40,920 nt of DNA, taken from NCBI GenBank assembly GCA_020052115.1, contig JAGVPR010000103.1:1-40920 (forward strand), in the 5' to 3' direction. A program made the position numbers and the translations under genes. Positions within the stretch are counted from its first letter, which is position 1. Every line of letters begins with the position of its first letter. Shown here one piece after another: positions 2,116-24,016 of the stretch. This stretch comes from Candidatus Eiseniibacteriota bacterium (lineage in GTDB: Bacteria > Eisenbacteria > RBG-16-71-46 > JAGVPR01). The notes below the pieces were generated by a model. That model had not been told where the DNA came from. It searched no databases and was given only the letters and a program-made list of their open reading frames with translations.

Positions 2116-2143
2116 GCGGGATGAACAACCCAGGGAGGAGATC

Positions 2144-3289: not shown

Positions 3290-3331
3290 CCTTCCTGTCG
3301 GAGATGGAAACCCGCGGGCTGCCTACCGCGG

Positions 3332-5052: not shown

Positions 5053-8000
5053 CTAATCTCTCCAGATGACGACCTTGAGATTGACGTTCTGCGTCCGCGT
5101 GCCGTCCGTCACCGTCAAGCGCGCAATGTAGACGCCGTTCGCCAAATCACCGCCGTCGTCCGTCTCGCCGGCCCAAAGCATGTCCACCGGACCCGCCGCG
5201 TGAGTGATGCGGCTGGCCAGTGTAACGACCTTGTCGCCTGCGAAGTCGTAGACCTCGAGCGATACATCGGCCTGCCGGCCGAGCGTGAACGTGAAGTGAG
5301 CCGTTCCCTCACCCTCCGCCGAATTCGGATTGAACGGGTTCGGGTAGACCTTCGGAGCGAACACCTCGAGGTTGTCCGTGCAGACCATGAAGTCGAACGG
5401 AACCTCGAAGCGGTTGCCCAGGCGATCCACACCGCTCACCGTTCCGGAGTACGTCCCGAACGAGAGCGGATCGGCGGCCGTAGCCGCCACCGTGACCGTG
5501 AGCGTGCCCTGGTTGTACGTGGGCGGCGCAACGGTCACTTCGCCTTCCGGACCCTGCAGCGCAACCCGGAGGCTTGTCGCGTCCACACCCGCTCCGATGT
5601 CAGCAACCCGGAAGGTGAGGACCACGTTGTCCACCGGGCTCACACAGGCGCCGGTCTTCGGAGCCAGCAACTGGACCGTCGGAGCCGAGCGATCCACGAT
5701 GAACCGCTGCTCGACGTACGGCGATCCGGCGTTGCCGACCTCGTCACGCCAGCCCTGCAGGTAGATGTGCATCTCCTGGCTCTCCCCGTCGAAGAACAGG
5801 CCGTCGCAGAGAAGCACCGGCTCGCTGCCCACCCACAGCGTGTCGAGCTGATCGCAGCCGAAGCCCCAACCGTCGGAGTTCTGCTCGATCTCCTTCACGC
5901 TGTAGAGAGTGACCTCGAGAACGTCGCGGTCATCAATGGCACCGCCGCCAACGATCGGCATGCTCACGAGCAGCGTATCGCTGGGCGAGTACTCCTCGAG
6001 GGACGGGCTCAGGTACGGGACGAGCTCGTCGGCCGTGCCCTGGTGCAGCAGCACGCGCTCTTCGATCTCATCCACGTCGTTCTGGTCATCTTCCCAATCC
6101 ACGAGCCACAGGTCGTACTTCAGGCCCTCATCCCAGTAGGTCGAGATCGGATCCTGAGTCTGCTCTTCGCGGACGTGGATCCCCGCCTCGCCATCGAAAG
6201 CCTGCGCCTGGAGCATCGTGTGCGGGTTCGTCAGGAAGCTCGTCGGTCCGATGTAGCCGGCGATGTTCCTCAGCAGCGGATCGGAGACGAACCCACCGCG
6301 GAACGCCACGGTGGGAGCCTTGCGATCCACCCCGAACGACGCGAACGGGGTCGCCGGGTCGAGATCAACCCAGGTATCCGTCTCGTATGTCCGGAACCGG
6401 ATGTTCAGCGTGTGCTGCCCAGCCGCGAGGTAATCCACCGAGCGGTCGGAGTGCTTGTAGGTGAGTTCGTACATCGTGCCGTCGTTGTTGACCTGCTCGA
6501 CGTCGAAATCACCGTTGCCGAGAACGTAGCCCGTACCGCTAGCCGCGACGATGCGGTTGTCGATCCAGACTTCGATCTCTTCGTCGTCAATGCCTTCACC
6601 GCTGTAGTCGTTCAGGTATGCGAGGATCTTCGGATCGCGATCCGTGAACCCGTTCGACCACGGATGGAAGTTGTACACGTACACCGGAGCGTTCGCCGTC
6701 GGCACGAAGAGCGACCAGATGTGGCCGACATCCTCGTCCGAATCACCGAAGATCTCCGCGTCCAGCGAAGCCGCCCGGAACGTCACCAGGTTGTTCAGCG
6801 TGTCCACGGAAACGTGCGTGACCGCGACGGCGCTCCAGTACTCGTCGTCGTAGTCGTTGCCGCTCTGATCGAGCCACCTCGGCATGATCAGCTGCTCGTT
6901 CCCCTGGAGACCGAGAGCTTCGAGTTCCTCGTCGGTGTAGCTCATCGTGACCAGGGCGTTGTAGCCCAGGTCGAAGGCGCCGCCGCCGGAGGTCCACTCG
7001 ATGTCGTAGACGTTGCCGAAGCGGGTCACGTACAGACCCTGATCGTAAGAGACAGTCGGCGCCTCCGTCGGCGCCAGGAGCAGGCACCCTGCCACGCCGC
7101 AGCCGCTCGGGATGTAGACCGACAGACCGTCGATCGAAACCACCCCGTTCGTGCCGAGCGCGTCGGTCACCTGGTAGCTGGCGATGAGCGTCTCCTGCAT
7201 CTCGATGTCCACCGTGTCCGGCGTCGCCGGGCTGAGGATGTCGTTAGCCCTCTCCGCCAGCGCCGTGACGCTGATGTTCATCTCGCCGCAGTTCGCGATC
7301 CCCGAGAGGTTCAGCACGCCCGTCCACGTCACATCGCTGTCCACCATCTTCGTGAAGTCAACGATCTGCTCGGTCGTGTTCCCGTCGAGGTCCTCGGACA
7401 CGGCGATCGCCTTCGGCATCTCGCTCGGGTCGGCGGTCGCCACCTTCAGGACCACGTTGCCCTGGCTCGGAGCGCTCAGGTCAACGCTGGTGATCCTGTT
7501 GAAGTCGAGCACCGCCACGAGCTTCTTCGACTGATCCGGATTCATGACCAGGTCCGCAACCAGGACCGGCGCGTTCACGTCGTCCCGGTTCCCATCGGAG
7601 TCCTTCGCAAGCGCGCGGATCCGCATCCGCTCCACAACGCTCGCGTCGAAGGCCGAGAGGTTGAACTTGGCCATCCAGAGATTGTCCTTCGGGAACTGGT
7701 CGGCGATGACCTCGCTCCCGATCCCGATGTTGATCCAGCCGAGCCCGTCCGGATCCGTGCCGGCCGCCGGCCAGGTGGCGTTGACGATGTCGTACTGGAA
7801 CTGCACCTCGGTGATCTCATCGTCGCTGTAGGTGAGCGCATACACCGTGGATTCGGTGTTCGGCTCGTCGCCGTGCGGGATGACGTCGGGGTCGAACCCG
7901 GCGATCCGCGCGATCGGCGGCGTCTTGTCAATCACGTTCACCTGGACGATCTTCGAGATCGCCATGTTGCAGGCCGTGTCGTATGCCAGGACCCGCAGGT

Positions 8001-11000
8001 AGTACACACCCTCCGGCAGGCCCGTCGTGTTCCACACCACGTTCGCCGTCACGTCGGTCGGGTCGCCGGCATCGTGGGTCGGCTGAACGATGCCGAGATC
8101 CTGCCAGCCGCCGCCGCCGACCTGCGCCGCGATCTGAACACCCAGCGCCGCCAGATTCTGGCCGAAGTCGCCGTTGATGTCGAACACGGCGCCACCGGTC
8201 TGGAGAGCGGCGTTCGTGTAGTCCAGAACGGCCGCGCCGAGGCTGGTGGTGATCACCGAGTACACGGTGACGTTCGCACCCTGCAGTGCCGGCAGGACCA
8301 CACCGAGTCCGTCGCCCTGAGTCGGCTCATCGCCGACGAGGATGAAGAACTTCTGCGCGCCCGGCCGGAACGTGTAGTGCTGAAGGCTCTCGACGAGGGC
8401 CTCGAGACCATGCTCGGCTCCCGAGCGTCCCGTGCCGACAGCCTGAACCATCGTCTGGAAGACCGACGTGCTCGACGTGAACTGGCCCGTCCCGACCAGC
8501 GGCGTGCCCGTCGAGCCGTCCGTATTGATGATGCCGCTCGGGTCACCGAACCAGGCGACGGCCAGCTGGACGTCCTTGCCCGCGAGGGCGTTCGCGAACA
8601 CCTGGGCGTTCGCGGCGACCGCGCTCTGGTAGGAGCCCATGCTGCCCGACCCGTCAATGACCCACACGATGTCGGCCCTGCCGCCGCCGCCCGCGATGTC
8701 GCCCGCGAGAACCTGGAACTGCAGCTTGTTGACCCAGGTCTCGGCGGAAGCCGGGATGCAGGGCTCGTCGTCGTCGGCAGAGGCGTGGATCTTGACCGCC
8801 GTGCCGAGCGTGACGTCCGTGATCGTCCCGAAGTCCACAGGGTCCACCGTGGTGTCGTTCGTGTAGTTGACGATGTTCGTAATGGCCACTTCAGGCCCGA
8901 TGTGGTCAACCGTCACGTGCCGGAAGGTGCCGTCGGTGTTCGTGTAATTGAGGATGTCCCTGTTGCCCGCACGGTCATCGTAGGTCACCCGGAGATCGTA
9001 GAGGCAGCTCTCGAGGTCCGAGATATCCCACGTGGTCGAGTAGGTGTTCAGGATGTCGTCCACGAGCGGCGTGGACGGCGTGATCGTGGCATACGTCCAG
9101 AACGGATCGTCGTCAGGATCGGACGCCCTCTTGTACTCGTAGATCGGCCGACCCGTGTCATCCCTGCGCCAGACGTCCGTGTCCGTCGAGACCGTGATGA
9201 GGTCCACGATCCGGCCGTCCGTCGAGAAGGTAAACACGTCGCCCACCTCGAAGTCGTCGTTGGCGATCGGCATGCCGTCGCTGTCAACGCCCGGCGTGAA
9301 CTGCACCCAGACCGTCCCTTCGATCCACACCTGCGAACCGGTTGTGACACCGGCGCCGTTGTGGCCGTTGGAGGCTGTCCAGTCGAAGGTCGCCGCGCCG
9401 ACGTCGCCCGAACTCGTCATCATGATGCTGTACACGACGAGAGAGTCAGGCACGGTCCCGTGCGGAGCCACCCAGCCGCGGTTACGCGGATCCGGCCCGC
9501 GGTTCGGGATCATCGACTTCTGCTGCACGATATCGAGACTGTCGTTGATCGTGAGCGTCGCCGCCGTGAAGCCGTCCTGCCACGGCAGGATGCACTCACC
9601 GGCTTCCACGTCGCCTTCGACAGGCAACCACGTCGCCGTCGGAGCCGTGTGGTCAACGATCATGATCACGATCGGCGGAGCGCTGTCGCGGTTACCGGCA
9701 TCGTCCTCGGCGATCGCCGCGAACTCGTACCGGCCTTCAGCGAGCGGCGTGGTGTCCCAGTTCCTGAGCACCCATGTGAAGTCGCCCGTGGTGTCCCTGT
9801 CGCCGTCGGCGAGCGTCCACGTCGTGGCGCCCTCCGGCCGGTAGAAGAACTCCACGAACTCCGTGTCATGGTCGCCCTTGAGGATGGTCGCCCAAATCTC
9901 GACCGCCCCGCGGACGTGCTCCTCCTCCGGGAACTCCACTTCACGCTCGTCGCCCACCGCACGCACGAGCTTGGTGATCGTGGCAACCGGCGCGATCGTG
10001 TCCTGCACGTGCAGCTGCAGGCCACGCCCGTCGATCATCGCCTGGACCGCCGTGTCCGTGTTGAGCAGGAGGTCCGAAGACGCCGCCACGACGTCGTATG
10101 TGGCCCCGACCGTCAGCATCGGGGTCATCTGGTTGAGATCCCAGTCGAACGAGTAAGGCCTCGTCTCGTCCGGGTTCACGTCGGTGTCGTCATAGCCAGG
10201 CTGCGCCGACTGCCACGAGCTGGGCACGTTGAGGTCGGTGTGCAGCTTGTACATGAACTCGATGATGTCATCCTCGGTTTCGGTCTCGGTGCGGGCGAAC
10301 GCCGTGAAGACCTGATTGCGTTCGACCGTTCCCTCGAACTCGAAGGCCGGGGTCGAAGGATCGAAGTCCATCGTCGCCATGGGCGCCGTGTTGTCCACGG
10401 TCACGTCGAACAGGACCGGGGAGCAGGCTCCCGACCCCCAGGCGTCCTTCTCGCTGTTGCCATGCACGTCCACCGCGTATGCCCGGACCTGCCAGTGGCC
10501 GTCCGGATAGATCGCGGCGCCGCTGCCGTCAATCGCGAGCGTGTTCCAGTTGATCATCCAGTCTTCGCCGAGGGTGTTGTCCGCTCCAGCAAACACCTCG
10601 TACGACACCGTGTCCGGCGTCGACTCGATGAGGATCCACTCGCCCGTAGGCATGCCGTCTCGATGCGCCTCGAAGTTCACGAGAGCGCGTCCGCCCGGCA
10701 GCATGGACTGGTCGCCGGCCGCCGTGGTCGCGAACAGCGCCACGGATCCGGCCACCCACGTCCCGTTCTCGAGCGTCGTCTCGGTCACATCCTGCGGCAG
10801 AATCTGGCCGCCGGTGGCCGCGACGTCCGTCAGACGGGTGTTGCAGGGCGCCGTGACGTCCTGGACGAGCACCGCATTATTCCGAACCAACATGGACCAG
10901 TTGCCAGCGCTGTCCCGTGCGGTCGCCCGCAGCGCGAACAGACTGTCGGCCCACGCCGTGTTCGTCGGAGTGGTCCACGAGATCTGCCACAGCGTCGGAT

Positions 11001-14000
11001 ACGGATCAACCGGAGCCGTCATCAGTCCGATGGTCGTCCAGTCGGCCTCGTTGATGCTGCTGGCCGGCCGGTACTCCATCCGGGCGCCGAACATGCCGCC
11101 CGACTCCATCGGAAGGCCCTGAAGAGCCTCGAAGTTATCGTCAATGGCCGCACCCAGCGGAGCGACATCGCCGCCCGCCACGTGCAGAGGATCGGTGTTC
11201 ATGTCGGTGCCGCCACCCTCCATCTCGTAGGTGCCGGCGAAGAGATCCTTGATGTAGGGCGAGGCGGGGTCGATCCGGAGCGACTGGCCCGGATCATCGC
11301 TCGAGCTGTTGCCCGCGTAGTCGGTCGCGAGCGGACGGAACTGGTACGCCTTCACGGCGGCAGCTTCCGACGTCGCGCCGTTGTCCCCGCCCTGCATTGC
11401 GAGGAAGAGGTTCGGCAAGCCGTAGTACTCGAGGATCCACTGACCGTTCGCGGCGCTGTCGCCGCCCGGGTCGTCGCCCTGGTAGTCACGATACTCAAAC
11501 GTGCCGATCGTGAGCCACCGCGGAGCCGTTTCGTCCTCGCGCGGATAGCGGTAATCGTCGCGGAACTCGAGCGTCATCATCTCGATGTCCGTGGACGAGT
11601 CGCCGTCATCCTCAGCCTTGAATGTGACCGTCGTCGGCAGAACCGGCACGAACTGCGTCTCCTCCGGAAGATAGTCCGGGATGATCAGCGTCGTGTGGTT
11701 CTCGACGAGCGGCAGGCCGCCCGCCTTGATGAGCACGGCCGCCGGCGGAGTGTGGTCGAACCGCACCGTGATCATCGGCACCGTCTCCGTGCCGTCGATC
11801 ACCCCGTTGCCGTCCGTGTCGCCGCCGATGTTGCCGTCGGCGTCGCGCACGATGCCCCGGAGCTGGTACAGGCCGTCCGTCCACCGGTCCGTGTCCATCG
11901 TCCAGATGAAGAGCTTCCGGTTCGCCGAGACCGGAGTGTCAACCAGCGGAACCGTGGTGACGTCCTCCCATGCGACGCCGTCGCCGGAGATCTGAAGCGT
12001 GCCCGTGACCGCGTCGTACTCATTGAGACCGGTCGCCATCGCCCAGACCATTGCCTGCCCGGTGAACACCATCAACGGATCATCCGGCCAGTAGGTCTTG
12101 CCGTTGGTCATGTTGGTCAACTGCCAGAAGTGCGCCACCGGGCCGTCCATGTCGTTGAGGATGACGAGGCTCGTCCTCCCCTGCTCGCCGAGGTTGCCCA
12201 CGGCGTCCACGGCCAAGGCCCGGACTTCCACGTACGCGTCGCCCGAGCGGCCGAGGTCGTCGAAGATGACCTGACGGATCGACTCGGTGTTCAGCGTCGC
12301 GGTGTAGTAGTGCTCCCCGTCCTCGACCGTCTCATCGTCGAGGTCCGGGGTCTCGAACTGCACGCCCATGATCGGCGTGAAGTAGTCGTCGTCCTCGTTG
12401 ACCTGAGTGACGTCAATGTCATGCCAGCTGCTGTCCGCCGGCGACGGCGACCACTGGAAGACCACGGCCACCGGCTTCTCGGCCAAAGTGTACTGACCGA
12501 AGAAGGTGACCGGATCCCCGATGCGGACCACCGCTCCGTTGACCGGCTCCGTCGGGCCGCCGTTGATGGAGGCGAGCTTCACCTCCGCCAGCGCCGGCAT
12601 ACCGTCGATCGTGAGGTCGGTAAGGTACTCATCCGGCGTGTAGCTGACGTTGAAGCCGTCATCGAACACCACCGCGCGGATCTGGAACACCGACTGAGCC
12701 TCGTCGGCCTCGTCAATGATCCCGTCGTTGTCGTTGTCAACCTGGTCGCCTTCGGTGGACTCGTCAACGACCAAGTCTCGATCGTTGTCGAGATGGTCGT
12801 CCACGGAACCCGGCGTCGGCGTGGTCCACGTCACGAACCAACCGCTGCTGACCGGATCGGGGTCCTGGCCCACGATGGTCGCCCAGCGCCACGACTGTCC
12901 GTCGTAGTACTGGAAAAGGACCTTCGCCGGGTCAACGATGTTGACCCCGCCCGGCTCATCCACCAGGTACGTCTGCAGCCCGACGAGCCACGCCGCCGGA
13001 GCCGAAGTGATCGGCTCGAGCGTGTTGCTCGGCGTGAACGGGTTGTTCATGACGTTGACGGCGTAGGTCTGCGTGATCGGCGTGCGATCAATCACCGTCC
13101 GCTTGCCGACCGTGCTCGCCGAGCCGTTGCCGTCCTCACCCGAGAACTCCCACCGGTAGACGCCGTCCGGAAGCGTGGAGATGTCCACGTTCGTCCAGTA
13201 ATCAACGTTCGCCGGAAGGATGATCCGGGAATCGCCGAGGTTGAAGTGCCACGGCGTCGGATCGCCGAGTGTCGGAGCGACGTAGCCGACCGGATTCGTG
13301 TCGTTGCGAGGATCGTCAACCGGATTCTCGGTGCCGTTCCCGTCGATGTCGAAGTTGTCGCCGATCGTGTCCACGAGGAACTGGTACCTGATATTGCTGC
13401 CCTCGCTGACCTCACCCACGACCACCGTCCACACATTCGCGGACTGCGTCATCGGGTAGAGCTCGTTGAGCAGGTCCTGCACCCCGTCCGCATCACGATC
13501 GAAGAACAGCGTCACGTTCTCGAAGTCGCCCGGCGTGACCAGGTGATACCAGTCGGCCTCGAAGAACTTGAAGGTGATCGGCATGTAGCCGTGCTCGGTG
13601 ATGTCCTCCGCCAGCGGCGTCATCGTCTGCTCGGCCACCACGGCGCCGGTCGTCTCATTGATGAGGCGCGCGATCACCGAGGACGGAACGAGCGGATCGG
13701 CCGGAGCGTCGTCGTCCACGAGCAACAGATCCACCTCGTCGCCGGAGAGCTTCGTCACCGGCGGGAGGCTAGAGAGTTCGTTGATCGAGTTGCCGAGCTT
13801 CGCCGTAATCACCTCGTAGAAGGCCGGATCATCCACGTCCTGGTGCCCGAGGCCGCCGACATGGAAGTTCGGCGAATCGGTGTCCAGGACCGTGATGATG
13901 GCCCACTCGGCCGTCGGCGGCTCCTTGTTCGTGAGCGGCGACTGCGTCTCGGCGCGGGCCATGATGGACCATACGCCGTTGTTCGTGCCGTCGCGCGCCG

Positions 14001-17000: not shown

Positions 17001-20000
17001 TCGCGTTGTAGGCCGGGACGCGCACACCGTACTTGAAGTACTCGGTGCCGCTGTCCTCGAACCAGCTCTTCGCGTACACCCGCGTGATCACGGCGTGCGG
17101 CATCGTGCCGTCCACCGCCACCTCGTGCAGCTCGGCCAGGTCGGCCGGGCTGTCGTTACCCATGATCACCTCTTCCTCGTTACCGATCTCGATACCGAGA
17201 GTCGGGTCCGTAGGATTCGGATCCGGGTTCGGACGGAAGATGTACGGCTGCCAGGTCTCGGTCGTGATGTTGTACCACTCGAGCCGGTCGGCAGCGCGGG
17301 CGACGAAGTAGTAGTCGTCCTGCGAGTCGGCCGGGCTGTTCGTCACGAAATCAGGCGTCCAGCTGATGTGCTCCTCGAGCGAGTGGATGCGCCCGGTCGC
17401 GTGCGTCGCGTCGGTGATCAGGTTGACGAAATCAGGATCGCTGTTCTTCGCGTAGAGCAGCTCGACCCACTGGACGTCCGTGTCCACGCTGGTCGCGCCG
17501 GCGTGATAGACCTCGTCGTCGTAGATCGTGCTGTCGTTCGGAATCAGCGTGCCTTCCGTGGTCGCCAGCTTGAACTCGGCCCCCGGCGCCGTGTTGTCCA
17601 GCAGGAAGATCGTCGGCGCCGCGTAGGTCTCGACGACGTTCTCGGCCTGGTCATAGGCCACCGCCTTCACCCAGATCCCGTCCTTGTCGTCAATCGGATT
17701 GCCCGACAGGCGAAGCTGCGTGAGGTACGTGTCCCACTGCCAGGTCCAAGTCGTCGCCGGAGCCGGCTTGTGCACGACGAAGTTGAAGTTGTCGCGCACG
17801 AAGAACATCCCGGTCCGGTCGAGGCCGTCGGCGTAGTCAATGCCGTCCACGCCGTCCTCGTCGTCGTCCATGGAGGTCGTGTAGGTGTTGTCCGACGGCG
17901 TCGGGTCCGGCTCGCCGTTGACCGTGTCGCCATCGAAGTCAACGCCGAAGCCCTCACCGAGGACCCCGTCGTTGTCCAGGTCGGTGCCGGGCGACTCGAA
18001 TTCGAAGTCGTCCACGTAGCCGTCCTGGTCGTTGTCCACGAAGTCGGCGTCGTAGGCGGCGATCGCCTGGCCGACCTGGGCGTCCATTTCATCAACCCCG
18101 ACCTCGCCGGCGGACGGACGTCCGTTGCCGTCGATGTCGAAGGCGATGACCCAGTCGCTGTCGTCGTCGAGGCCGTTGAAGCCGGCCGCGCCGCCGTCAC
18201 CGGCTGCGTCTCCCGCCGGGTCGTAGTTCAGGTCGCTCCAGTCCGCGAGCGGCGGCACCGAGCCCGGCACCGTGAAGTCCGCGTACTGCATCCGGATGAA
18301 GAGGACGTCGTTGTCCGACGGCGTATAGATGTCCAGCTCCGTCAGACGGCGACCCTCGAGAATGTCGTTGAGCTCCCGCCCCTCGCGATCCCTCGCCGCA
18401 CCCTTAGCGGGCTGGGCCGGGATGTAGGGGCTCGAGATCTCGAACTCGTTGTCGCCGAAGAGCTGATTCGGCGGGCTGTCCGAGTGGACGATGCTGACGC
18501 CGTCGCTCATCGTGATCGAGCCGTCGCCGTCGGAATCGAAGAACCCGTACAGCCGGATGTCCGAGATCTTGGTGACGGACGGGGCGTTGTTGTCAATGTG
18601 GATCAAGCCCGCGCCCGGCGCCGACGCGTTGTTGATCGGCGCGTCGGACGGCCCCGTGTTCAGCGACGCGAAGATCATCCCGTCCACCGGGATCGTCGCG
18701 TCGAAGTTGTTGCCCGAGAGAATCTGCTGCGGCTCCGCCGCGACGTTGATCGTGACGAACAGGTTCGTCTGGCTGTCGACGTCGCTGTCCTTCTTGGCCG
18801 CCGGCAGCGCGGAGTTCACTCCGTTGCCGAGCGCCGTCTCATCAATCACGTCGAGGATGTCGCCGTCGCCGTTGTAGTCAACGCCCGCGGCCGGTTCACT
18901 GAGGCCGGCCGTCAGCGTCCCGCTGTGGTTCCGGTCCTCGGTCAGAGCCGGAATCGGCGTCGCGGGCTCGAGCCGCCAGGTGCGGTTGTCACCCGGCGCC
19001 TTGGGAGCGACCAGCGTCGCCTGGCCCCAGTTCGTGTCCACATCCGGGTCGAAGATGCCGTTGCTGTCGGCGTCCACCCAGATGAACACGCCCGAGATGT
19101 CCGTCGGCTCCTGGGCCTGGTACGGGTTCATGACCGTGAACGACGTCAACATGTCGTCGAACGTGTCCACGACCCCGTCGGCGACCGGCGGCACACCTTC
19201 AGGCGTATCGGTGTAGATATCCTCCTCAACGCCCGAGGTCCCGTCGTAGTTGCCGTCGGTGTCCGCATCCACCCAGCCGGCGAGGATGTTGTCGGCGGCG
19301 ATCGGCGGATCCGAATTCGGCACCGTGCCGAAGAACGAGATCGCATGGCCCGGGTCGTAGGACTCGGCGCCCTGGAAGAGGACCACGTCCGCGGCGGCCG
19401 TGTAGTAGCCGTCTCCGTCGAGATCAATGATGATCTCGTCGTTCTCGGCGTAGTCGTAGCCGTTCACCGGCGAGTCCGGATCGCTCTCGACCCGCTCGTT
19501 CCAGAACTTGTAGTCCGCGTCGAACGCGAAGAGCGGCGCACCCAGGACCGTCGTCTTGGTCAACACGTCCTTGCGGATCGTGTCCGGACGGGTCGTGAAG
19601 GTGCCTCCGCCGTCAACGTCGCGGATGATGTCCTCGGCGAGGTTGTCGAACGTCCCGTTCGCCGGGTTGTTATCCACGAACATCTCGAGATCGAAGTCCG
19701 TGATCGCCCCGACGAAGCTCGGGAAGGCGACGACTTCGCCGACGTTCCACGCCTCATTGACGTTGAGGTCGGCCACAACCGCCTCGCCCCACTGGTACGC
19801 CCCGTCACGCGGCGCGATGTCCACGTAGGAAGCCGCCGGGATCGGACCGGCGTTGTCGAGGTCGAGGTTGTGAGCGAGGCCGGCAGCGAGCACCGCCTCG
19901 CCGATGTCGGCGCGCAGATCGGCGTCCGCATCGTTGATGACGGCTTCACCGTAGTCGTAGTTCCCGTTGCCGCCGCCGCCGCCGATTCCGCCGTCGTCGA

Positions 20001-23000
20001 AGTGGCAAGTGCCGTTGGTGAACGCCTGGAGGTTCTCGCCGTCCGGCACCACGTGCGCCCCGTTGTAAAGCAACGCGACGACGTCTTCCTGATCGCGGAA
20101 GACTCCCGGATACGGCTGGTCGCCGGTCTCATCCACCCAGAAGGCGTTCGGGGCGTCGAGCATCTCGTTGAAATTCACGTCCTCCGTCACCGTGTCGTTC
20201 ACGTCGCCGTCACGGTTGAGGTCCACGGCCACGTCCGGATCGAGGATGTCGCCGTCCAAGTTGAGGTCCACCAGGAGGACGGTCTCGTCCAGCGTGTTCT
20301 CGACCAGGCCCGCGTCGAGAACGCCGTTCGCGACGAGGTCCTCGCTGAACGGGGTGCCCAGGGCGCCCGGCAGAATGGGCCCGTCAACCAGGGTGAAGTC
20401 GCCCCAGTTGCGGTCAACGCGCAGGTCGTTCAACTGAACGACGGGCCGGCCGCCGATGAAGTTGAAGCCGCCGCCGCGGAAGTAGACCACGTCGCCGGGG
20501 CTGTACACGCCCGCGGTGGCGCCGCCCGCCTCGTCGCGGATGGCCCACTCATCAACGCCAGCCGAGAAAGCGCTCGCCAACGTCAATGCGCCGCCGGAAT
20601 CCGCGGCGTTCACGAGAACGTTCGAGCCCTCGCGGTAGGCCGTCTCGCGGGTGTCGCCCGGCGAGATGTTCGTATCGAGGTCATTGTCGGCGTAGATCGG
20701 CTCGAGGTTCACGACCCCCGTCGCCAGGTTCGCGCTGTAGTCCCAGTTACCGTCGTTGTCCTCGTCGAACCAGATCGGGGCATCAACGGCGGGCTGGAAG
20801 GCCGTCAGCGGAACCGGCTGAGGATCCGGCATGGCGAACGCGGCGTTCAGCTCCGGATCGCCCGCGCCGACGATGCTGCCCGGCGGGAAGTACTGATTCG
20901 CCGGCAGCGGCGCGCCTTCGAATACGTTGCAACGCTGGATGCCGGACTCGACGTTGGCCCCCAGACCCGAGGCCCGGTAGTAGATCGGTTCGCCCGGGCT
21001 CCAGGCCGTGCTGCCGTCCACGTCGTAGTACTTGAAGTCCGACAGATCAACGGTCTTGGCACGGGCGTCGTCGCTCGTGTCATCCGCCTGGTCCAGGAAC
21101 ACCGGCGATCCGTCCGACATGAAATCCACGCGGACGTCGCCGGCGTTGACCGTCGCGTCCGAGGAGACGTAGCTCGCGTCAATGTTCAGCACCCACGCGC
21201 CGCCCGTCCCGTTGTCCACGCGGAAGTTCGCGAAGAACGAGATCGGGTTCAGCGAGTCACCGAGGTCGTGCTCCAGCGCGCCGACGTTACCGTTCTCGTA
21301 CGTCACCGCGTTGAACACGCCGTCATTGTTCCGATCCCAGAAGATCGGCTCGCCGCTGTTGTAGAAGCCGTTGCCGTTGACATCCACGAAGTAGATGTCG
21401 TTCATGCCCTGGTGATCGCTCTGGAAGTTGTAGACGTTGTCGCCGCCGTTCGTGCTGTTGTCGGCGTTTCCGTCGTGGACCACCCGGACGATGTCGTCAT
21501 CCGAGCTGAAGCCGCCGGTGCCGAGGAAGAACTCGTCATCGCTGCCGGCGCCGTCGTTGTCGAAGCGGACCAGCGTGCCTGCCCCGGACGGCCTGATGAA
21601 GACCTCGCCGACGTCGAGGATCGAGTCGTTGTCCGCATCATTGAAGAACGGGTAAGTCGGGAGAAGGGTCGGGGGCCCGCCGCTCAGATCAACGGCCTGC
21701 TCCAGGGTCGAGAAATCGTTCAGCGACCCGGCCCCGCCGCTCCGCACGGCGGCCTCGGTTGCGTCGAGGGTGGCGTTGACGTCCACCGTCTCGTTGACGA
21801 TGGTCTCGCCGTCCTGCCAGAGCCCGTCGCCGTTCAGGTCAATGTAGCCGAAGGCGAGCGGGAACTCGGTCAGCGCCTGCCCCTCGGTCGCGTTCGGGCC
21901 TTCGTCAACCAGGACGATGTCGGCCGTGGCCGAATAGGTCATCGAGTTGTCCCAGTCGTCGAAGATCTCGTCGCCGCGAGCGGCGTCGGTCTGGTTGCCC
22001 TGGGTCTCGTCGTCGTCCCCGTCGAATCCGGCCACGCCGCTGTCGGCGTAACGCGTGCGGTGAACGACGGCGTTCACGTCGGTGAACGGCGTCGCGAGCG
22101 GAGAGAGCGGGGCGCCCGCGAAGGCATTCACGCCGTCGAAACCGGTCGAGACCGGCGTGTCCGCCGTCTCGGAGAAGACGCCCGTCGCAATCGGCACCCA
22201 GTTCGGGGCCGAGTACACCATCCCGCCGCCGTCAATGACGACCCACTCGTCGCCCGTGTACGCGGGCGGGTTGTAAACGATCGGGTCGTAGTCGAACGCG
22301 TTGTCGCCGTCCGAATCAACCCAGATCAGAGCGTAACCCGCCGAGTAGGACCAGCTAGCCGTGAAGGCAGTGCCCGTCGTGCCCGGGTCCGGTGCCGCGC
22401 CGACGAGAACCGGCTCGCTGTTGAAGACGTTGTTGTTGTTCGAATCCGTGACGGCCGCTTCGCCGAAGTCATACGTGCCGTTGACAACGACGTTGTCACG
22501 GAACTTGACCGGCGTATTCAGAAGCGAGCCGTTCGGAAGGCCAGCCATACCCAGAAGCGGGACGCCAAGGAGAACCGTCTCGCCCAGGTCGAACTGGTTG
22601 TTGACGGTGACGTTGTCACGCCAGATCGCCTCGCCGTTCTCGAAGGTGTCGTCGTGATCATCGTTCTCGAAGCGCGCGTCCGCCGGGAAGGCCGTAAGGG
22701 CGCTCTCATCGACCGGGAAGCCGAAGATAACAGGCTCCGCGTCGAACTGGGCGTTGCCCTGCGTGTCATCCCACACGACGTCGTCGGCCGGCTTGAACGT
22801 CCCGTCGCCGTTGACGTCAGCCCAGACCTCGTCCGCGGTGCTTCCGCCGAAGGTGTTGACCTCCGCGGTCCCCGCGAATGCGGCCTTCTGCACCTCGGTC
22901 AGGCCCTCCGGGAAGATGATCCCTTCCTTCTCGTAGGTCCCGGCCGGGGCCGTGCCGTCAACGTCGAAGAAGATGATCTCATTCGCGTTGTAATCGCCCG

Positions 23001-23574
23001 GGTCCCGGACGTTGCGGAAATAGGCACGGGCGTTGCCGGCGGTGGCGTGTCCCAGGGCCGTCATCCAGGCGGTGATCAAGTAGCCGGGAGTGCCCTCAGG
23101 CGGCGCCGTGCCGTCGGGAGAGAAGGTCAGCGCCTCGCCCGAGTCGAACTCACCGTTGGAGTTCGCGTCCACCCAGATGTCCTCGCCCGGATCCAGCTCG
23201 TTGTTCGCGCCGCCCGGCATGCCCGGGGCGTTCGTGAACATGGCGAGGTCGGGGAGCGCGACCCCCGTCTGGCCGGCCTCCATCGTCTCGACGTTCAGGA
23301 AGCCAGCGAGTCCCTTATCGGGATCGAACGGCGTGATCGGGTCCCCGATAGCGGAGGCCTTCGCGCCGTCGAACTCGATCCCGTCCTCGACTGTGTTGTC
23401 CGGGAGCTGCACGTCCAGGGTCAGGACGTTCTGCGTACCCGGTCCCACAGAGATCTCAGGGACGCCATAGTTGTCGACGTCGCTGGCCAGGAACGCCACG
23501 ACCGCCGAGCTTGCGAGAGCTAGCGCGGCGATCGTCACGATCAGCACCAGCGCCCTCTTGCCGTTCGAATTCAT
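5053..23574 (-). CDS. giant secreted multidomain adhesin-like protein (6,173 aa): N-terminal Ca-loop-like repeat region, Ig-like module array, two VWA domains, T9SS/FlgD-Ig-type C-terminal sorting domain
   Basis: Single open frame 5053..23928 (-). The start is set at ATG 23574: AAGGAGGA lies 7 nt upstream and a signal/anchor peptide follows (MNSNGKRALVLIVTIAALALASSAVVAFLA). The 118 codons upstream use AT-ending codons atypical for this genome. Domain evidence is given in the sub-features and findings. Confidence 0.9.
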   Translation of the reverse strand: MNSNGKRALVLIVTIAALALASSAVVAFLASDVDNYGVPEISVGPGTQNVLTLDVQLPDNTVEDGIEFDGAKASAIGDPITPFDPDKGLAGFLNVETMEAGQTGVALPDLAMFTNAPGMPGGANNELDPGEDIWVDANSNGEFDSGEALTFSPDGTAPPEGTPGYLITAWMTALGHATAGNARAYFRNVRDPGDYNANEIIFFDVDGTAPAGTYEKEGIIFPEGLTEVQKAAFAGTAEVNTFGGSTADEVWADVNGDGTFKPADDVVWDDTQGNAQFDAEPVIFGFPVDESALTAFPADARFENDDHDDTFENGEAIWRDNVTVNNQFDLGETVLLGVPLLGMAGLPNGSLLNTPVKFRDNVVVNGTYDFGEAAVTDSNNNNVFNSEPVLVGAAPDPGTTGTAFTASWSYSAGYALIWVDSDGDNAFDYDPIVYNPPAYTGDEWVVIDGGGMVYSAPNWVPIATGVFSETADTPVSTGFDGVNAFAGAPLSPLATPFTDVNAVVHRTRYADSGVAGFDGDDDETQGNQTDAARGDEIFDDWDNSMTYSATADIVLVDEGPNATEGQALTEFPLAFGYIDLNGDGLWQDGETIVNETVDVNATLDATEAAVRSGGAGSLNDFSTLEQAVDLSGGPPTLLPTYPFFNDADNDSILDVGEVFIRPSGAGTLVRFDNDGAGSDDEFFLGTGGFSSDDDIVRVVHDGNADNSTNGGDNVYNFQSDHQGMNDIYFVDVNGNGFYNSGEPIFWDRNNDGVFNAVTYENGNVGALEHDLGDSLNPISFFANFRVDNGTGGAWVLNIDASYVSSDATVNAGDVRVDFMSDGSPVFLDQADDTSDDARAKTVDLSDFKYYDVDGSTAWSPGEPIYYRASGLGANVESGIQRCNVFEGAPLPANQYFPPGSIVGAGDPELNAAFAMPDPQPVPLTAFQPAVDAPIWFDEDNDGNWDYSANLATGVVNLEPIYADNDLDTNISPGDTRETAYREGSNVLVNAADSGGALTLASAFSAGVDEWAIRDEAGGATAGVYSPGDVVYFRGGGFNFIGGRPVVQLNDLRVDRNWGDFTLVDGPILPGALGTPFSEDLVANGVLDAGLVENTLDETVLLVDLNLDGDILDPDVAVDLNRDGDVNDTVTEDVNFNEMLDAPNAFWVDETGDQPYPGVFRDQEDVVALLYNGAHVVPDGENLQAFTNGTCHFDDGGIGGGGGNGNYDYGEAVINDADADLRADIGEAVLAAGLAHNLDLDNAGPIPAASYVDIAPRDGAYQWGEAVVADLNVNEAWNVGEVVAFPSFVGAITDFDLEMFVDNNPANGTFDNLAEDIIRDVDGGGTFTTRPDTIRKDVLTKTTVLGAPLFAFDADYKFWNERVESDPDSPVNGYDYAENDEIIIDLDGDGYYTAAADVVLFQGAESYDPGHAISFFGTVPNSDPPIAADNILAGWVDADTDGNYDGTSGVEEDIYTDTPEGVPPVADGVVDTFDDMLTSFTVMNPYQAQEPTDISGVFIWVDADSNGIFDPDVDTNWGQATLVAPKAPGDNRTWRLEPATPIPALTEDRNHSGTLTAGLSEPAAGVDYNGDGDILDVIDETALGNGVNSALPAAKKDSDVDSQTNLFVTINVAAEPQQILSGNNFDATIPVDGMIFASLNTGPSDAPINNASAPGAGLIHIDNNAPSVTKISDIRLYGFFDSDGDGSITMSDGVSIVHSDSPPNQLFGDNEFEISSPYIPAQPAKGAARDREGRELNDILEGRRLTELDIYTPSDNDVLFIRMQYADFTVPGSVPPLADWSDLNYDPAGDAAGDGGAAGFNGLDDDSDWVIAFDIDGNGRPSAGEVGVDEMDAQVGQAIAAYDADFVDNDQDGYVDDFEFESPGTDLDNDGVLGEGFGVDFDGDTVNGEPDPTPSDNTYTTSMDDDEDGVDGIDYADGLDRTGMFFVRDNFNFVVHKPAPATTWTWQWDTYLTQLRLSGNPIDDKDGIWVKAVAYDQAENVVETYAAPTIFLLDNTAPGAEFKLATTEGTLIPNDSTIYDDEVYHAGATSVDTDVQWVELLYAKNSDPDFVNLITDATHATGRIHSLEEHISWTPDFVTNSPADSQDDYYFVARAADRLEWYNITTETWQPYIFRPNPDPNPTDPTLGIEIGNEEEVIMGNDSPADLAELHEVAVDGTMPHAVITRVYAKSWFEDSGTEYFKYGVRVPAYNAIELWVQHEDVNENHIIDSVTENDAERYMGCDLNGDGVVDSLAAPGDEIAWDLNQDGSFTTYSEDLNSNGRLDDLLPGGVLAVDDGDTTACENDIEKIVFEYTSDHVTWVPIATVTGTIDGSGNVADFTYPVVVTWDTTDPALFPEGEYDLRAVAYDIEGNFDPNPTIVTVTVDRSGLNAYFSPHGSPADSSTVCGIVDLHSVVYGLPADDVGSTRVLYRYIRGEEAGPSVADIVFLIDSSSSMQDPILSVQAAVQGFADELSATNVDFRLGLVDVESVPVLRQNLTADVAAFSTALNLLTPNETEVPTYDVLQNAAGAGMGINWRPGAERILILITDTTPEIGTAADLDFMANHEPAEEAAMVAIVDATNAKVFAICELNAAADAAANNGEYAGDVYAYDTVTLTTGGILYELASSSYAPVLSDIAGTVVGGFWTEIGADEDADSPGSTNTTAWADYVWPWDTNGLPDGYVTVEAIALDTLGNSDADRSDPGQRIHIFIDNTAPAPSFLMPADGTVISENNGNTVMEVLIDTNDEAGTDAVFLEWSFDGVNWNQIDGINNDEDFFTDAPTGLLKMFDGSDGVYTKGAGNTDLTVVEVGDTRRTAIGWTVPAYLISTVVTENDQDRGLPLLPFMKDGVNADPNEATIDGAPERSSPWRFVWLTKNTLGELENDRLVYLRATAEQECEGGDDLAAMTQIVVHVTDNVAPNTTLITVSEPDGDILAPTGTQTLANTLSIFATAADHGVLDEQGSVVDVSLWFRPREQDLDANGLADYDLLPQPGAVGDQWMAWTRAASDTTYPYIFDWDVSGLNGPYEFAIVATDSPGNRSVIDETKGGWLMITHMAATVTDPLDATINEGAIATIFADLASNPVDDAFDLVRFYRASVVLDEPVTPAFTTQGTYAGFWVADLLENTTDPDGDNLNGTDVRVDIGGTAGTYRTFADLAADPSPAVTDFAIDYGTDQIIFASDPAAAVMVDYHTSSWTLIAIGDEADPYTVDWQTARDGTNNGVWSIMARAETQSPLTNKEPPTAEWAIITVLDTDSPNFHVGGLGHQDVDDPAFYEVITAKLGNSINELSSLPPVTKLSGDEVDLLLVDDDAPADPLVPSSVIARLINETTGAVVAEQTMTPLAEDITEHGYMPITFKFFEADWYHLVTPGDFENVTLFFDRDADGVQDLLNELYPMTQSANVWTVVVGEVSEGSNIRYQFLVDTIGDNFDIDGNGTENPVDDPRNDTNPVGYVAPTLGDPTPWHFNLGDSRIILPANVDYWTNVDISTLPDGVYRWEFSGEDGNGSASTVGKRTVIDRTPITQTYAVNVMNNPFTPSNTLEPITSAPAAWLVGLQTYLVDEPGGVNIVDPAKVLFQYYDGQSWRWATIVGQDPDPVSSGWFVTWTTPTPGSVDDHLDNDRDLVVDESTEGDQVDNDNDGIIDEADEAQSVFQIRAVVFDDGFNVSYTPDEYLTDLTIDGMPALAEVKLASINGGPTEPVNGAVVRIGDPVTFFGQYTLAEKPVAVVFQWSPSPADSSWHDIDVTQVNEDDDYFTPIMGVQFETPDLDDETVEDGEHYYTATLNTESIRQVIFDDLGRSGDAYVEVRALAVDAVGNLGEQGRTSLVILNDMDGPVAHFWQLTNMTNGKTYWPDDPLMVFTGQAMVWAMATGLNEYDAVTGTLQISGDGVAWEDVTTVPLVDTPVSANRKLFIWTMDTDRWTDGLYQLRGIVRDADGNIGGDTDGNGVIDGTETVPMITVRFDHTPPAAVLIKAGGLPLVENHTTLIIPDYLPEETQFVPVLPTTVTFKAEDDGDSSTDIEMMTLEFRDDYRYPREDETAPRWLTIGTFEYRDYQGDDPGGDSAANGQWILEYYGLPNLFLAMQGGDNGATSEAAAVKAYQFRPLATDYAGNSSSDDPGQSLRIDPASPYIKDLFAGTYEMEGGGTDMNTDPLHVAGGDVAPLGAAIDDNFEALQGLPMESGGMFGARMEYRPASSINEADWTTIGLMTAPVDPYPTLWQISWTTPTNTAWADSLFALRATARDSAGNWSMLVRNNAVLVQDVTAPCNTRLTDVAATGGQILPQDVTETTLENGTWVAGSVALFATTAAGDQSMLPGGRALVNFEAHRDGMPTGEWILIESTPDTVSYEVFAGADNTLGEDWMINWNTLAIDGSGAAIYPDGHWQVRAYAVDVHGNSEKDAWGSGACSPVLFDVTVDNTAPMATMDFDPSTPAFEFEGTVERNQVFTAFARTETETEDDIIEFMYKLHTDLNVPSSWQSAQPGYDDTDVNPDETRPYSFDWDLNQMTPMLTVGATYDVVAASSDLLLNTDTAVQAMIDGRGLQLHVQDTIAPVATITKLVRAVGDEREVEFPEEEHVRGAVEIWATILKGDHDTEFVEFFYRPEGATTWTLADGDRDTTGDFTWVLRNWDTTPLAEGRYEFAAIAEDDAGNRDSAPPIVIMIVDHTAPTATWLPVEGDVEAGECILPWQDGFTAATLTINDSLDIVQQKSMIPNRGPDPRNRGWVAPHGTVPDSLVVYSIMMTSSGDVGAATFDWTASNGHNGAGVTTGSQVWIEGTVWVQFTPGVDSDGMPIANDDFEVGDVFTFSTDGRIVDLITVSTDTDVWRRDDTGRPIYEYKRASDPDDDPFWTYATITPSTPLVDDILNTYSTTWDISDLESCLYDLRVTYDDRAGNRDILNYTNTDGTFRHVTVDHIGPEVAITNIVNYTNDTTVDPVDFGTITDVTLGTAVKIHASADDDEPCIPASAETWVNKLQFQVLAGDIAGGGGRADIVWVIDGSGSMGSYQSAVAANAQVFANALAGKDVQLAVAWFGDPSGIINTDGSTGTPLVGTGQFTSSTSVFQTMVQAVGTGRSGAEHGLEALVESLQHYTFRPGAQKFFILVGDEPTQGDGLGVVLPALQGANVTVYSVITTSLGAAVLDYTNAALQTGGAVFDINGDFGQNLAALGVQIAAQVGGGGWQDLGIVQPTHDAGDPTDVTANVVWNTTGLPEGVYYLRVLAYDTACNMAISKIVQVNVIDKTPPIARIAGFDPDVIPHGDEPNTESTVYALTYSDDEITEVQFQYDIVNATWPAAGTDPDGLGWINIGIGSEVIADQFPKDNLWMAKFNLSAFDASVVERMRIRALAKDSDGNRDDVNAPVLVADLVMNPDQSKKLVAVLDFNRITSVDLSAPSQGNVVLKVATADPSEMPKAIAVSEDLDGNTTEQIVDFTKMVDSDVTWTGVLNLSGIANCGEMNISVTALAERANDILSPATPDTVDIEMQETLIASYQVTDALGTNGVVSIDGLSVYIPSGCGVAGCLLLAPTEAPTVSYDQGLYVTRFGNVYDIEWTSGGGAFDLGYNALVTMSYTDEELEALGLQGNEQLIMPRWLDQSGNDYDDEYWSAVAVTHVSVDTLNNLVTFRAASLDAEIFGDSDEDVGHIWSLFVPTANAPVYVYNFHPWSNGFTDRDPKILAYLNDYSGEGIDDEEIEVWIDNRIVAASGTGYVLGNGDFDVEQVNNDGTMYELTYKHSDRSVDYLAAGQHTLNIRFRTYETDTWVDLDPATPFASFGVDRKAPTVAFRGGFVSDPLLRNIAGYIGPTSFLTNPHTMLQAQAFDGEAGIHVREEQTQDPISTYWDEGLKYDLWLVDWEDDQNDVDEIEERVLLHQGTADELVPYLSPSLEEYSPSDTLLVSMPIVGGGAIDDRDVLEVTLYSVKEIEQNSDGWGFGCDQLDTLWVGSEPVLLCDGLFFDGESQEMHIYLQGWRDEVGNAGSPYVEQRFIVDRSAPTVQLLAPKTGACVSPVDNVVLTFRVADIGAGVDATSLRVALQGPEGEVTVAPPTYNQGTLTVTVAATAADPLSFGTYSGTVSGVDRLGNRFEVPFDFMVCTDNLEVFAPKVYPNPFNPNSAEGEGTAHFTFTLGRQADVSLEVYDFAGDKVVTLASRITHAAGPVDMLWAGETDDGGDLANGVYIARLTVTDGTRTQNVNLKVVIWRD
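5056..5352 (-). other. C-terminal sorting domain of the giant protein (T9SS type-A / FlgD-Ig-like)
   Basis: KVYPNPFNPNSAEGEGTAHFTFTLGRQADVSLEVYDFAGDKVVTLASRITHAAGPVDMLWAGETDDGGDLANGVYIARLTVTDGTRTQNVNLKVVIWRD. The blocks PNPFNP, VSL.vYD..G..V..L, W.G.D..G..v.nGvY and a terminal K.v..r match this domain type. The S8 peptidase C-terminus in this window carries the same blocks. Confidence 0.75.
8107..8680 (-). other. VWA domain 2 of the giant protein
   Basis: ADIVWVIDGSGSMGSYQSAVAANAQVFANAL...QKFFILVGDEPTQ...VTVYSVI. The MIDAS DxSxS motif (DGSGS) is encoded at 8641-8655. Gly4 linkers flank the domain (IAGGGGRAD ... QVGGGGWQD). Confidence 0.75.
15712..16317 (-). other. VWA domain 1 of the giant protein
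   Basis: ADIVFLIDSSSSMQDPILSVQAAVQGFADEL...ERILILITDTTPE...AKVFAICE. The MIDAS DxSxS motif (DSSSS) is encoded at 16276-16290. Confidence 0.75.
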
Positions 23575-24016
23575 TCTCGGTTCCTCCTTGGTGGAATGAG
23601 AATTTGAAACCGGACGACGTCTCAAAAAGTTTATGAGTGACCTCCACAGACCAGGATTACCGCCTGCCTCACTTCCGTACGGCTCCACTTTGCGCCTCCT
23701 CTTCCTCGACCGGTCGCCCGCTTCGTGGGTCGCGGTGTGGGGTTCCGTCTCCCGGACCGACCAGCCTTCAGGGATACACACCGTTTCACCGATAGCCTGT
23801 GGGTCACTCGCGTTCAGCGATGCATTGACTTTGTGGCCACCGAGCGTTGCCCTTGAGCCCTCCTTGTCTTCAGCGCCCAACGACGATCGCCCGACCGGTG
23901 CCGCTCCCCTCGCAAGGGGAGACCGCATCGGGCGGGCCCATCCATATGTGCGCCCTGTTACTTGGGACGAATGAACGCCCCAACATCACCTCCGCGACGG
24001 GCTACTCCAAACGGTC

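Follow-up and report, generated by a model that had tools for sequence, protein, structure and literature searches.

The giant gene and its barrel-encoding neighbour

The stretch of DNA analysed here (in the following the window) is the 40,920-nt contig JAGVPR010000103.1 from a Candidatus Eiseniibacteriota bacterium, which carries on its reverse strand a giant gene of 18.5 kb and, directly downstream of it, a second gene whose product we call the partner (Table 1). The giant protein is composed of a putative signal or anchor peptide, a region of Ca-loop repeats, an array of Ig-like modules with two VWA domains and a C-terminal domain (CTD) of the kind found in type IX secretion system (T9SS) cargo, and the partner joins a PorV/PorQ-family barrel, three TSP3 repeats and an OmpA domain in one polypeptide. 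An initial annotation of the window, made from the sequence alone, had described the giant gene and did not mention the partner, which turned out to tell the most about this locus.

The frame of the giant gene is uninterrupted as had been stated, being open over 5053..23928 (-) and containing no internal stop across its 6,173 codons when read from ATG 23574, and the ribosome-binding site AAGGAGGA was confirmed exactly 7 nt before this ATG. The in-frame ATG 23928 further upstream has no ribosome-binding site and was rejected as start, ATG 23574 being preferred because orthologues from other assemblies begin at the equivalent MNSNGKR or MNRRGK residue; the CATTCCAYYAAGGAGGA block is kept in four of the four upstream regions that were aligned. 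The protein is rich in Asp (11.4%), Thr (8.5%), Gly (9.2%) and Val (8.9%) and poor in Lys (1.2%) and Cys (0.32%), just as described before. Its internal repeats are merely 24–42% identical to each other, and at the DNA level we found just two tandem rows, each made of two copies (40 and 49 nt), besides dispersed repeat families of at most 51 nt with 60–87% identity, in agreement with the heterogeneous modules and the lack of long near-identical DNA repeats that the initial annotation had noticed.

The codon usage of the giant gene is typical for its host, as had also been proposed, with synonymous codon fractions correlating at r = 0.984 with those of 14 neighbouring genes and with a G+C content at third codon positions (GC3) of 0.886 compared to 0.80–0.91 in the neighbouring genes. 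TTA is absent, and CTA and TCA occur once each (codons 18 and 2248), where 12.3 of these three codons together would be expected from their rate in the 14 neighbouring genes. As the gene is nearly free of TTA, CTA and TCA, a stop-free antisense open reading frame (ORF) of 3,877 codons runs in codon register with the sense frame (5200..16833 (+)); this and the other long antisense ORFs were rejected as genes, since they are by-products of the GC3-rich codon usage.

The tail of the giant protein passes the cutoffs of two models for which the initial annotation had suggested a search, namely TIGR04183 for the T9SS type A sorting domain (25.4–27.4 bits, cutoff 23) and PF13860 for FlgD_ig (27.6–31.5 bits, cutoff 27). 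The tails of four orthologues reach the TIGR04183 cutoff as well (26.4, 32.8, 32.2 and 23.3 bits), and in every orthologue the domain is located at the extreme C-terminus. In addition, the last ~130 aa partly match the C-terminus of the PorU model with 45–49 bits, and the orthologue tails also match the models of PorZ and of T9SS-dependent peptidases at their C-terminal ends. PF18962 did not match the giant protein and gave 23 bits for orthologue L085, under its cutoff of 27; because it had no match in the window, membership among the type A cargo was assigned through TIGR04183 and FlgD_ig. Type B and type C CTD models were absent from the NCBIfam matches of the tail (E <= 0.1) and of the C-terminal half, and the type B model TIGR04131 matched none of the five tails tested (giant protein and four orthologues). 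An AlphaFold2 (AF2) model of the sorting domain from a three-row alignment (pLDDT 81) shows a seven-strand β-sandwich, for which Foldseek found PorU 6za2 (E 4e-5, TMq 0.71), PorZ 5m11 (E 6.5e-4) and FlgD, so that the predicted fold is consistent with a T9SS CTD and is not diagnostic of it. A word-indexed search with the C-terminal 1,000 aa returned a single fragment.

The window also contains an S8 peptidase whose tail matches PF13860 with 47 bits and TIGR04183 with 21.4 bits, slightly under the cutoff. The resemblance between this tail and that of the giant protein, claimed before from a block-for-block alignment, was recovered with 29% identity over 92 aa and a pairwise E of 2e-5, and the peptidase is likely a second cargo of the export system that the giant protein would use.

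The partner matches NF033709, the model of the PorV/PorQ family, with 114 bits (cutoff 90) over positions 3–326 of 326. This membership holds at the family level only, because the equivalog cutoffs of PorV2 (81.9 bits, cutoff 325) and PorQ (42.2 bits, cutoff 220) were not reached. AF2 with a 66-sequence alignment predicted a 14-strand barrel with a pLDDT of about 90 together with an OmpA-like domain (overall pLDDT 79), and the best PDB matches of the barrel are the chains 8gl6_F and 6h3i_F (E 2e-12, TMt 0.60–0.64), both representing PorV in SprA-PorV complexes of Flavobacterium johnsoniae, including the complex with bound RemA-CTD. FadL and TodX rank behind PorV with a TMt of 0.45–0.54. With the structures aligned, the barrel and PorV share only 18% identity. 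The sequence profile of the partner matches PorV at E 6e-18 as the only barrel protein among its best 60 matches. A fold match to the C-domain of PorE (6top) was also found.

Among the best 25 of the 46 NCBIfam matches of the partner there is no PorP/SprF model, and the best NCBIfam E-value belongs to the model of myxobacterial TraB, which is matched only partially (131 bits, cutoff 700). More than 5,800 proteins match the partner at E <= 1e-5, many of them probably through the OmpA domain alone. The homologues carrying an organism name all come from Candidatus Eisenbacteria and are 43–64% identical (43–55% for full-length ones), which bears out the earlier statement that the lineage lies outside the Bacteroidota. 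Annotations of metagenome-assembled genomes (MAGs) at NCBI already call the protein 'PorV/PorQ family protein', and thus its parts are catalogued, yet not interpreted.

At its other end the giant protein begins with MNSNGKR followed by the hydrophobic stretch ALVLIVTIAALALA and SS, so that the signal or anchor peptide of the initial annotation can be read directly from the sequence. Candidate cleavage sites are visible between ALA and SS and between FLA and SD and are kept in orthologues, and the hydrophobic stretch has a length that would also suffice for an uncleaved anchor; the whole peptide is conserved in five relatives (P0003, P0004, P0006, L089 and L090).

The Ca-loop region consists of about 12–16 degenerate units of ~50 aa with two EF-hand-like loops each and the pattern [FW]xDxNxNGx[FWY]DxGExVxxDxNxNxx[FY]DxGEP. 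Ca-loop repeats had been claimed before, and indeed 29 loops of the DxDxDG type were observed in the giant protein versus 3.2 +/- 1.8 in shuffled sequences, and nine full 12-residue EF-hand-like loops versus 0.16 expected. Between orthologues with an overall identity of just 39–56% the loop residues do not vary, and Ca2+ binding with a stiffening of the N-terminal part would be in line with this pattern. Beyond trivial loop matches a Pfam scan of the region gave no match even at E <= 1, and a PDB search with the repeat profile gave none either. An exhaustive search with aa 1–1200 against 1.84 billion representatives yielded just 21 matches, the distant ones among them being dockerin/BNR proteins with a more regular version of the repeat. 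Four of these proteins (P0005, P0008, P0009 and P0010; ~1,150–1,500 aa) combine the regular Ca-loop repeat with BNR/sialidase-like repeats and a C-terminal dockerin, and for their repeat neither a Pfam model nor a PDB relative was found. The ~50-aa double Ca-loop repeat is therefore a candidate for a new repeat family and potentially for a new fold. A word-indexed homologue search with the N-terminal 1,500 aa, in which low-complexity D/G/N words filled the candidate list, returned nothing.

Between these two ends the Ig array of the initial annotation was recovered as ~15 modules by an iterated local hidden Markov model (HMM) with domain E-values of 1e-15 to 1e-29. The modules, which match Pfam Big_13 and Big_3_3 weakly, are ~110 aa long and each end with ...YxLxxxAxDxxGNxxx...vDxTxP. 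Both VWA domains proposed before could be located as well, and the two DxSxS motifs that the giant protein contains each open one of them: VWA 1 reaches 31.6–33.7 bits with PF00092 (cutoff 23.8) and also passes PF13519, and VWA 2, which aligns with VWA 1, is borderline with 20.8–23.6 bits, slightly under the same PF00092 cutoff. The β-rich region preceding the CTD is 73–87% identical to close orthologues and 28–40% to those from the Eisenbacteria MAGs; Pfam gave just sub-threshold Ig-type matches for it, and a PDB search with an orthologue profile gave none. PDB sequence searches with both halves of the giant protein and two orthologue profiles gave nothing useful. As far as can be judged from these comparisons, most of the giant protein appears to be without detectable relatives outside its lineage.

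Table 1: Features of the window with coordinates on the contig (strand + or -).
Feature	Position	Strand	Details
ribD ORF	228..1517	-	mechanical start TTG 1517
FMN riboswitch RF00050	1470..1596	-	103.5 bits, upstream of ribD
Zinc-ribbon + DUF2007 ORF	1655..2128	-	between pilin-like gene and ribD
Cys-cluster ORF (CxxCxxCC-type)	2114..2605	+	between pilin-like gene and ribD
Prepilin-type (N_methyl, GFTLIEM) pilin/pseudopilin gene	2602..2994	-	130 aa, just beyond the terminator
Intrinsic-terminator-like hairpin	3257..3292	-	16 pairs, GC-rich, T-run; 40 nt after partner gene
Partner gene	3332..4954	-	540 aa, 98 nt downstream of giant gene
Partner, OmpA peptidoglycan-binding domain	3365..3652	-	PF00691, 72 bits
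Partner, three TSP3-type repeats	3680..3997	-	Ca-binding type
Partner, PorV/PorQ-family 14-strand barrel	4028..4855	-	NF033709
Giant gene	5053..23574	-	6,173 aa + stop, 663 kDa, pI 4.05
C-terminal sorting domain, T9SS type A / FlgD-Ig-like	5056..5367	-	aa 6070–6173
β-rich pre-CTD region	5368..7533	-	aa 5348–6069, best-conserved part of giant protein
Ig-like module array	7534..17889	-	aa 1896–5347, ~15 modules, interrupted by other segments
VWA domain 2	8254..8673	-	aa 4968–5107, DGSGS MIDAS start at aa 4974
VWA domain 1	15775..16308	-	aa 2423–2600, DSSSS MIDAS start at aa 2429
Ca-loop repeat region	19045..23205	-	aa 124–1510, ~1,400 aa, local HMM from related repeats
Putative Sec-type signal or anchor peptide	23482..23574	-	aa 1 to ~31, read from sequence
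Intergenic leader of giant gene	23575..24431	-	857 nt
Ribosome-binding site	23582..23589	-	before ATG 23574
Promoter-like TTGACA-17-CATATT	24044..24072	-	consensus scan, ~470 nt before start codon
YchF/Obg-like GTPase gene	24432..25472	-	73% identical in L089
tRNA-Lys(ttt)	25556..25631	-
tRNA-Leu(tag)	34942..35026	-	beneath spurious 222-aa ORF
S8 peptidase	38365..40701	-	with CarboxypepD_reg, InhA-like MAM and FlgD_ig tail

Conservation of the pair and its surroundings

In eight of the nine sampled lineages a giant CTD protein (4,378–6,173 aa) is followed by the partner after a gap of 90–260 nt, and this pairing persists while the partner identity falls from 81% to 42%, also where the other neighbouring genes differ. 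Orthologues of the giant gene, reached both via the partner gene and via N-terminal alignment, are collinear where their sequence was available, and at least 8 independent assemblies contain them. Three separate assemblies (two from JGI samples, one from a Logan run) have products called at 6,161 aa, which are 64–84% identical to and collinear with aa 2894–6173 of the window protein. Two NCBI MAGs of 'Candidatus Eisenbacteria' carry collinear orthologues with 26–40% identity and shared flanking housekeeping genes, called at 5,509 aa in GCA_020851285.1 (and also found on an ENA contig) and at 4,378 aa in GCA_016712505.1, and further lineages have versions of 5,085, 5,068 and 5,127 aa. Another Eisenbacteria MAG with the pair is GCA_942491735.1. 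The N-terminal alignment recovered L089 with 55–73% and L090 with 30–40% identity, the latter being stop-free over 3,450 codons and collinear with aa 1–3504. Scans of genome and metagenome collections with W-rich peptides of the giant protein itself gave nothing.

The flanking genes are shared as well: upstream the order tig-clpP-clpX-lon-...-purA-ychF is common to the window and L090, and downstream the partner, the pilin-like gene, small ORFs and ribD follow in the same order in the Eisenbacteria MAG loci L085 and L086, with ribE-ribBA-ribH coming next in related contigs. The N-terminal and the C-terminal half of the giant protein are each conserved beside the same flanking genes. As flanking genes and orthologues are shared in this way, the giant gene represents a conserved, vertically inherited chromosomal locus and not a recent import, which agrees with what the initial annotation had concluded from codon usage. 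With 42–81% identity the partner is better conserved than the giant protein (26–40% in the same MAGs).

Within the giant protein the Ca-loop region is the most variable part, and orthologue L089 is without ~520 aa there (about aa 600–1200). VWA 1 is missing from orthologue L090, and VWA 2 from L085 and L092. We observed that VWA 1 (aa 2393–2624), VWA 2 (aa 4969–5121) and the ~520-aa Ca-loop block vary by lineage while the remaining scaffold stays collinear in L090, L085 and L089. Judged from these alignments, both VWA domains are lineage-specific inserts in a conserved scaffold, outside the conserved core, and the lineage-dependent VWA and Ca-loop blocks show modules being gained or lost while the giant gene as such is conserved. 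In L098 (1-9935) seven consecutive ORFs on one strand (1,090+, 730, 178, 281, 140, 244 and 1,305 aa), the last one with a FlgD_ig tail, take up the region upstream of the partner; frameshift errors or decay have probably broken up the orthologous giant gene here.

The nearest ClpX in a set of genomes from 185,579 species is only 75–76% identical (two MAGs), and from the named homologues of the partner we conclude that the window belongs to an Eisenbacteria-like lineage. This candidate phylum is commonly grouped within the FCB superphylum or close to it, and the NCBI taxonomy lists it among the 'Bacteria candidate phyla' under the name Candidatus Eiseniibacteriota. According to a recent review, T9SS and CTD proteins do not occur outside the FCB superphylum (PMC12398890).

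We found no terminator-like site within the 98 nt that separate the giant gene from the partner gene, which suggests a transcription unit of two genes, and a strong site of this kind, the hairpin listed in Table 1, follows the partner gene. The leader in front of the giant gene contains two conserved TTGACA-type promoter-like blocks, of which the one at 24044..24072 is almost identical in the related contig L089. By eye the last ~270 nt of the leader appear ~90% identical to L089, the N-terminal protein there being only 64% identical. A regulatory RNA in this leader was considered and found no support, with no Rfam match at E <= 1 and a fold z-score of +0.6 versus shuffles.

Beyond the hairpin the pilin-like gene is kept in the closer lineages (L081–L088) and absent in the contexts of L092, L094 and L096, and the Cys-cluster and zinc-ribbon/DUF2007 ORFs are kept in the closer lineages with 52–70% identity. 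Because TTG 1517 overlaps the riboswitch, ribD probably starts at an ATG further inside the ORF, close to 1373 or 1343. On the other side of the giant gene a 486-aa ORF (24165..25625 (+)) was dismissed as spurious, as this region really holds the YchF/Obg-like gene and tRNA-Lys. The G+C content of the window is 63–71%.

Comparison with known systems

T9SS cargo held by an outer membrane barrel has been described before: SprB of F. johnsoniae (669 kDa) is bound to the co-expressed PorP-like barrel SprF, and PG1035 to PorP, for which the OmpA_C-like PorE provides the link to the wall (PMC9143113). The initial annotation had compared the giant protein with SprB, and from this comparison the size class stands (663 versus 669 kDa); the two systems also have in common a C-terminal T9SS sorting domain and a 14-strand FadL-family barrel thought to hold the cargo. 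The likeness is one of size and logic only, as no sequence similarity between the two proteins was found. SprB has a type B CTD, whereas the tail of the giant protein is of the type A / FlgD-Ig-like kind without a TIGR04131 match, and SprF belongs to the PorP/SprF family and is without TSP3 and OmpA, whereas the partner barrel is of the PorV family and comes with both. SprB and SprF also belong to another phylum, and no gliding genes were seen. Membership in the SprB family was rejected, since neither a type B CTD nor a PorP/SprF-family partner appeared among the NCBIfam matches described above.

PorV (LptO) of Porphyromonas and Flavobacterium, the shuttle of type A cargo, is close to the partner barrel, which passes the family model and has PorV as its best solved structural match. 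In contrast to PorV, the partner possesses an extra C-terminal extension of ~230 aa (three TSP3 repeats and OmpA) and its gene sits directly after that of one giant cargo. The PorP-PorE-PG1035 system of P. gingivalis follows a similar logic, with a barrel that holds a CTD cargo and ties it to peptidoglycan via an OmpA_C-like domain, but there two proteins are needed for what is one polypeptide of barrel and OmpA domain in the partner. Moreover, the tail of PG1035 is of type B and that of the giant protein type A-like, and the partner has none of the TPR, WD40 and CRD parts that PorE possesses.

Giant adhesins of the type I secretion system (T1SS; LapA, MpIBP, SiiE and BapA type) resemble the giant protein in being very large, acidic, Cys-poor and presumably extended fibres, and they too have Ig-like arrays with Asp-rich Ca-binding sites and VWA-type ligand-binding modules. 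The giant protein differs from them by its N-terminal Sec-like signal, its T9SS-type tail and highly diverged modules instead of near-identical tandem repeats. It contains no RTX GGxGxD motif and gave no Ca_tandemer or HemolysinCabind match, and a classification as RTX/T1SS adhesin was rejected for the missing RTX nonapeptides and the signal-like peptide at the N-terminus. TraA/TraB of Myxococcus xanthus are a bicistronic pair in which a surface protein bearing a C-terminal sorting tag goes together with a protein that has an OmpA-like domain (PMC3325183). The two-gene layout is alike, and the partner gives the partial TraB match mentioned above, but the pair described here has no PA14 domain, Cys-rich repeat or MYXO-CTERM, and its barrel belongs to the PorV family.

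Giant CTD-bearing surface proteins with a cognate FadL-family barrel are already known as a general kind. Searches of curated family and structure libraries and of the literature turned up no PorV-family barrel fused to TSP3 and OmpA domains, the literature giving nothing relevant on PorV-thrombospondin fusions, and also no case in which such a fused barrel is firmly paired with a single giant cargo of the type A-like kind throughout a candidate phylum.

A putative wall-docked surface fibre

We consider the giant protein to be a real and vertically inherited protein which is exported by Sec and T9SS and acts as a Ca2+-stiffened surface fibre or adhesin paired with a PorV-type barrel, and we would give this reading a probability of about 0.6. 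Following this model, the N-terminal signal peptide would lead the protein through Sec, and the type A / FlgD-Ig-like CTD could then be recognised by a T9SS for passage across the outer membrane. The presumably co-transcribed PorV-family barrel might receive or hold the CTD, by analogy with PorV and its CTD cargo, SprF-SprB and PorP-PG1035. It has been postulated that mobile adhesins are held by a barrel alone and non-mobile ones are also tethered to the wall (PMC9143113). As the barrel is fused through TSP3 to a peptidoglycan-binding domain, on this logic the fibre would be docked at a wall-tethered site and would be a static anchor rather than a moving gliding adhesin. The C-terminus would be proximal to the cell and followed by a stalk of ~15 Ig modules, in which the two MIDAS-type VWA inserts may bind ligands, and the ~1,400 aa of Ca loops at the N-terminus would form the distal end. 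It could even be that one polypeptide merges the functions of a PorV-type CTD receptor and a PorP/PorE-type peptidoglycan tether and thus serves as fixed, dedicated dock for a single fibre of ~5,000–6,000 aa, whose distal end is made of an EF-hand-like Ca-loop repeat shared only with few dockerin/BNR proteins, but this more detailed proposal is a tentative one.

Several observations weigh against the surface fibre. About two thirds of the giant protein match no known family, its tail scores only a few bits over the cutoffs, and the fold search with the CTD model ranks the Fn-like domains of streptococcal C5a-peptidase first and is matched by generic Fn/Ig sandwiches. T9SS genes had been expected by the initial annotation, and a PorV-family gene does lie directly next to the giant gene, but none of the core genes (SprA/Sov, PorK/L/M/N, PorU) was found within the 40.9-kb window; in the literature searched there is no paper joining T9SS with Eisenbacteria or Eiseniibacteriota. 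Furthermore, the S8 peptidase with its similar tail has no adjacent PorV-like gene, and in L095, the exception among the nine lineages, the partner occurs without a visible giant gene, the contig ending 345 nt upstream after an ApbE fragment.

Since the tail of the S8 peptidase goes without a neighbouring PorV-like gene, the partner may, as the main alternative, be the general PorV of the lineage and not a dedicated anchor. The giant protein would then be an ordinary type A cargo from which a PorU-like sortase cuts the tail, leaving it glycolipid-linked at the surface or released, and the adjacency of both genes would merely mean that the largest cargo is expressed together with a general component. 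Such a shuttle would agree with the lone partner in L095, with the matches to the general PorV/PorQ model and to the solved PorV, with the far better conservation of the partner compared to the giant protein and with the single PorV that serves type A cargo in Bacteroidota (PMC9143113). Nevertheless we regard it as rather unlikely, because the close adjacency is kept in eight of nine lineages despite differing flanking genes, the TSP3 and OmpA extension is absent from known PorV (402 aa in 6h3i), and a shuttle diffusing between translocon and attachment complex is not expected to bear a peptidoglycan-binding domain.

The marginal tail scores, the unspecific fold search and the window without T9SS core genes would also fit a CTD that is just another FlgD-like Ig module and no secretion signal, in a protein which is periplasmic or reaches the surface via a pilin pathway related to the type II secretion system or via a TraA/TraB-like receptor system with an OmpA-domain partner. 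The strict C-terminal location of the tail in every orthologue, the TIGR04183 cutoff passed in five of five tails tested, the matches to the C-termini of PorU, PorZ and T9SS-dependent peptidases and the assignment of the partner barrel to the PorV family by a curated HMM and by structure make this improbable. For the pilin route one could invoke the prepilin-type gene that the closer lineages keep as second gene downstream, but a strong terminator separates it from the pair, and the L092, L094 and L096 contexts do not have it; for the receptor route TraB is the best NCBIfam match of the partner by E-value, and TraA/TraB are a bicistronic surface receptor and OmpA-domain protein (PMC3325183), but the match is far under its cutoff and its best stretch covers the TSP3/OmpA part only. 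One might even suspect the 18.5-kb frame to be an assembly chimera, a multi-gene fusion or a decaying pseudogene, as the organism is uncultured, the frame is known from assembled sequence and the orthologous region of L098 is split into seven ORFs. Yet the gene is free of internal stops, has host-typical codon usage and contains no repeats long enough to mislead an assembler, the 6,161-aa products in three assemblies and those of 5,509, 5,127, 5,085 and 5,068 aa are collinear with the window protein where their sequence was available, and both halves are conserved with the same flanking genes, so that an artefact is very unlikely.

In summary, if the surface-fibre model is correct, a giant adhesin with its cognate FadL-family barrel would extend the T9SS cargo logic to an uncultured high-GC candidate phylum, and the fused partner bears on the question how T9SS cargo that is held non-covalently gets fixed to the envelope. 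As the Eisenbacteria hosts are uncultured, near-term tests are limited to heterologous expression or structural work. With receptor barrel and peptidoglycan tether being one protein, the partner would represent a new mode of anchoring, if the proposal holds true. The giant protein is likely the largest surface structure of Eisenbacteria-like organisms, and because it is conserved in the same chromosomal position (eight of nine lineages), it may be relevant to the attachment of Eisenbacteria to particles or cells.

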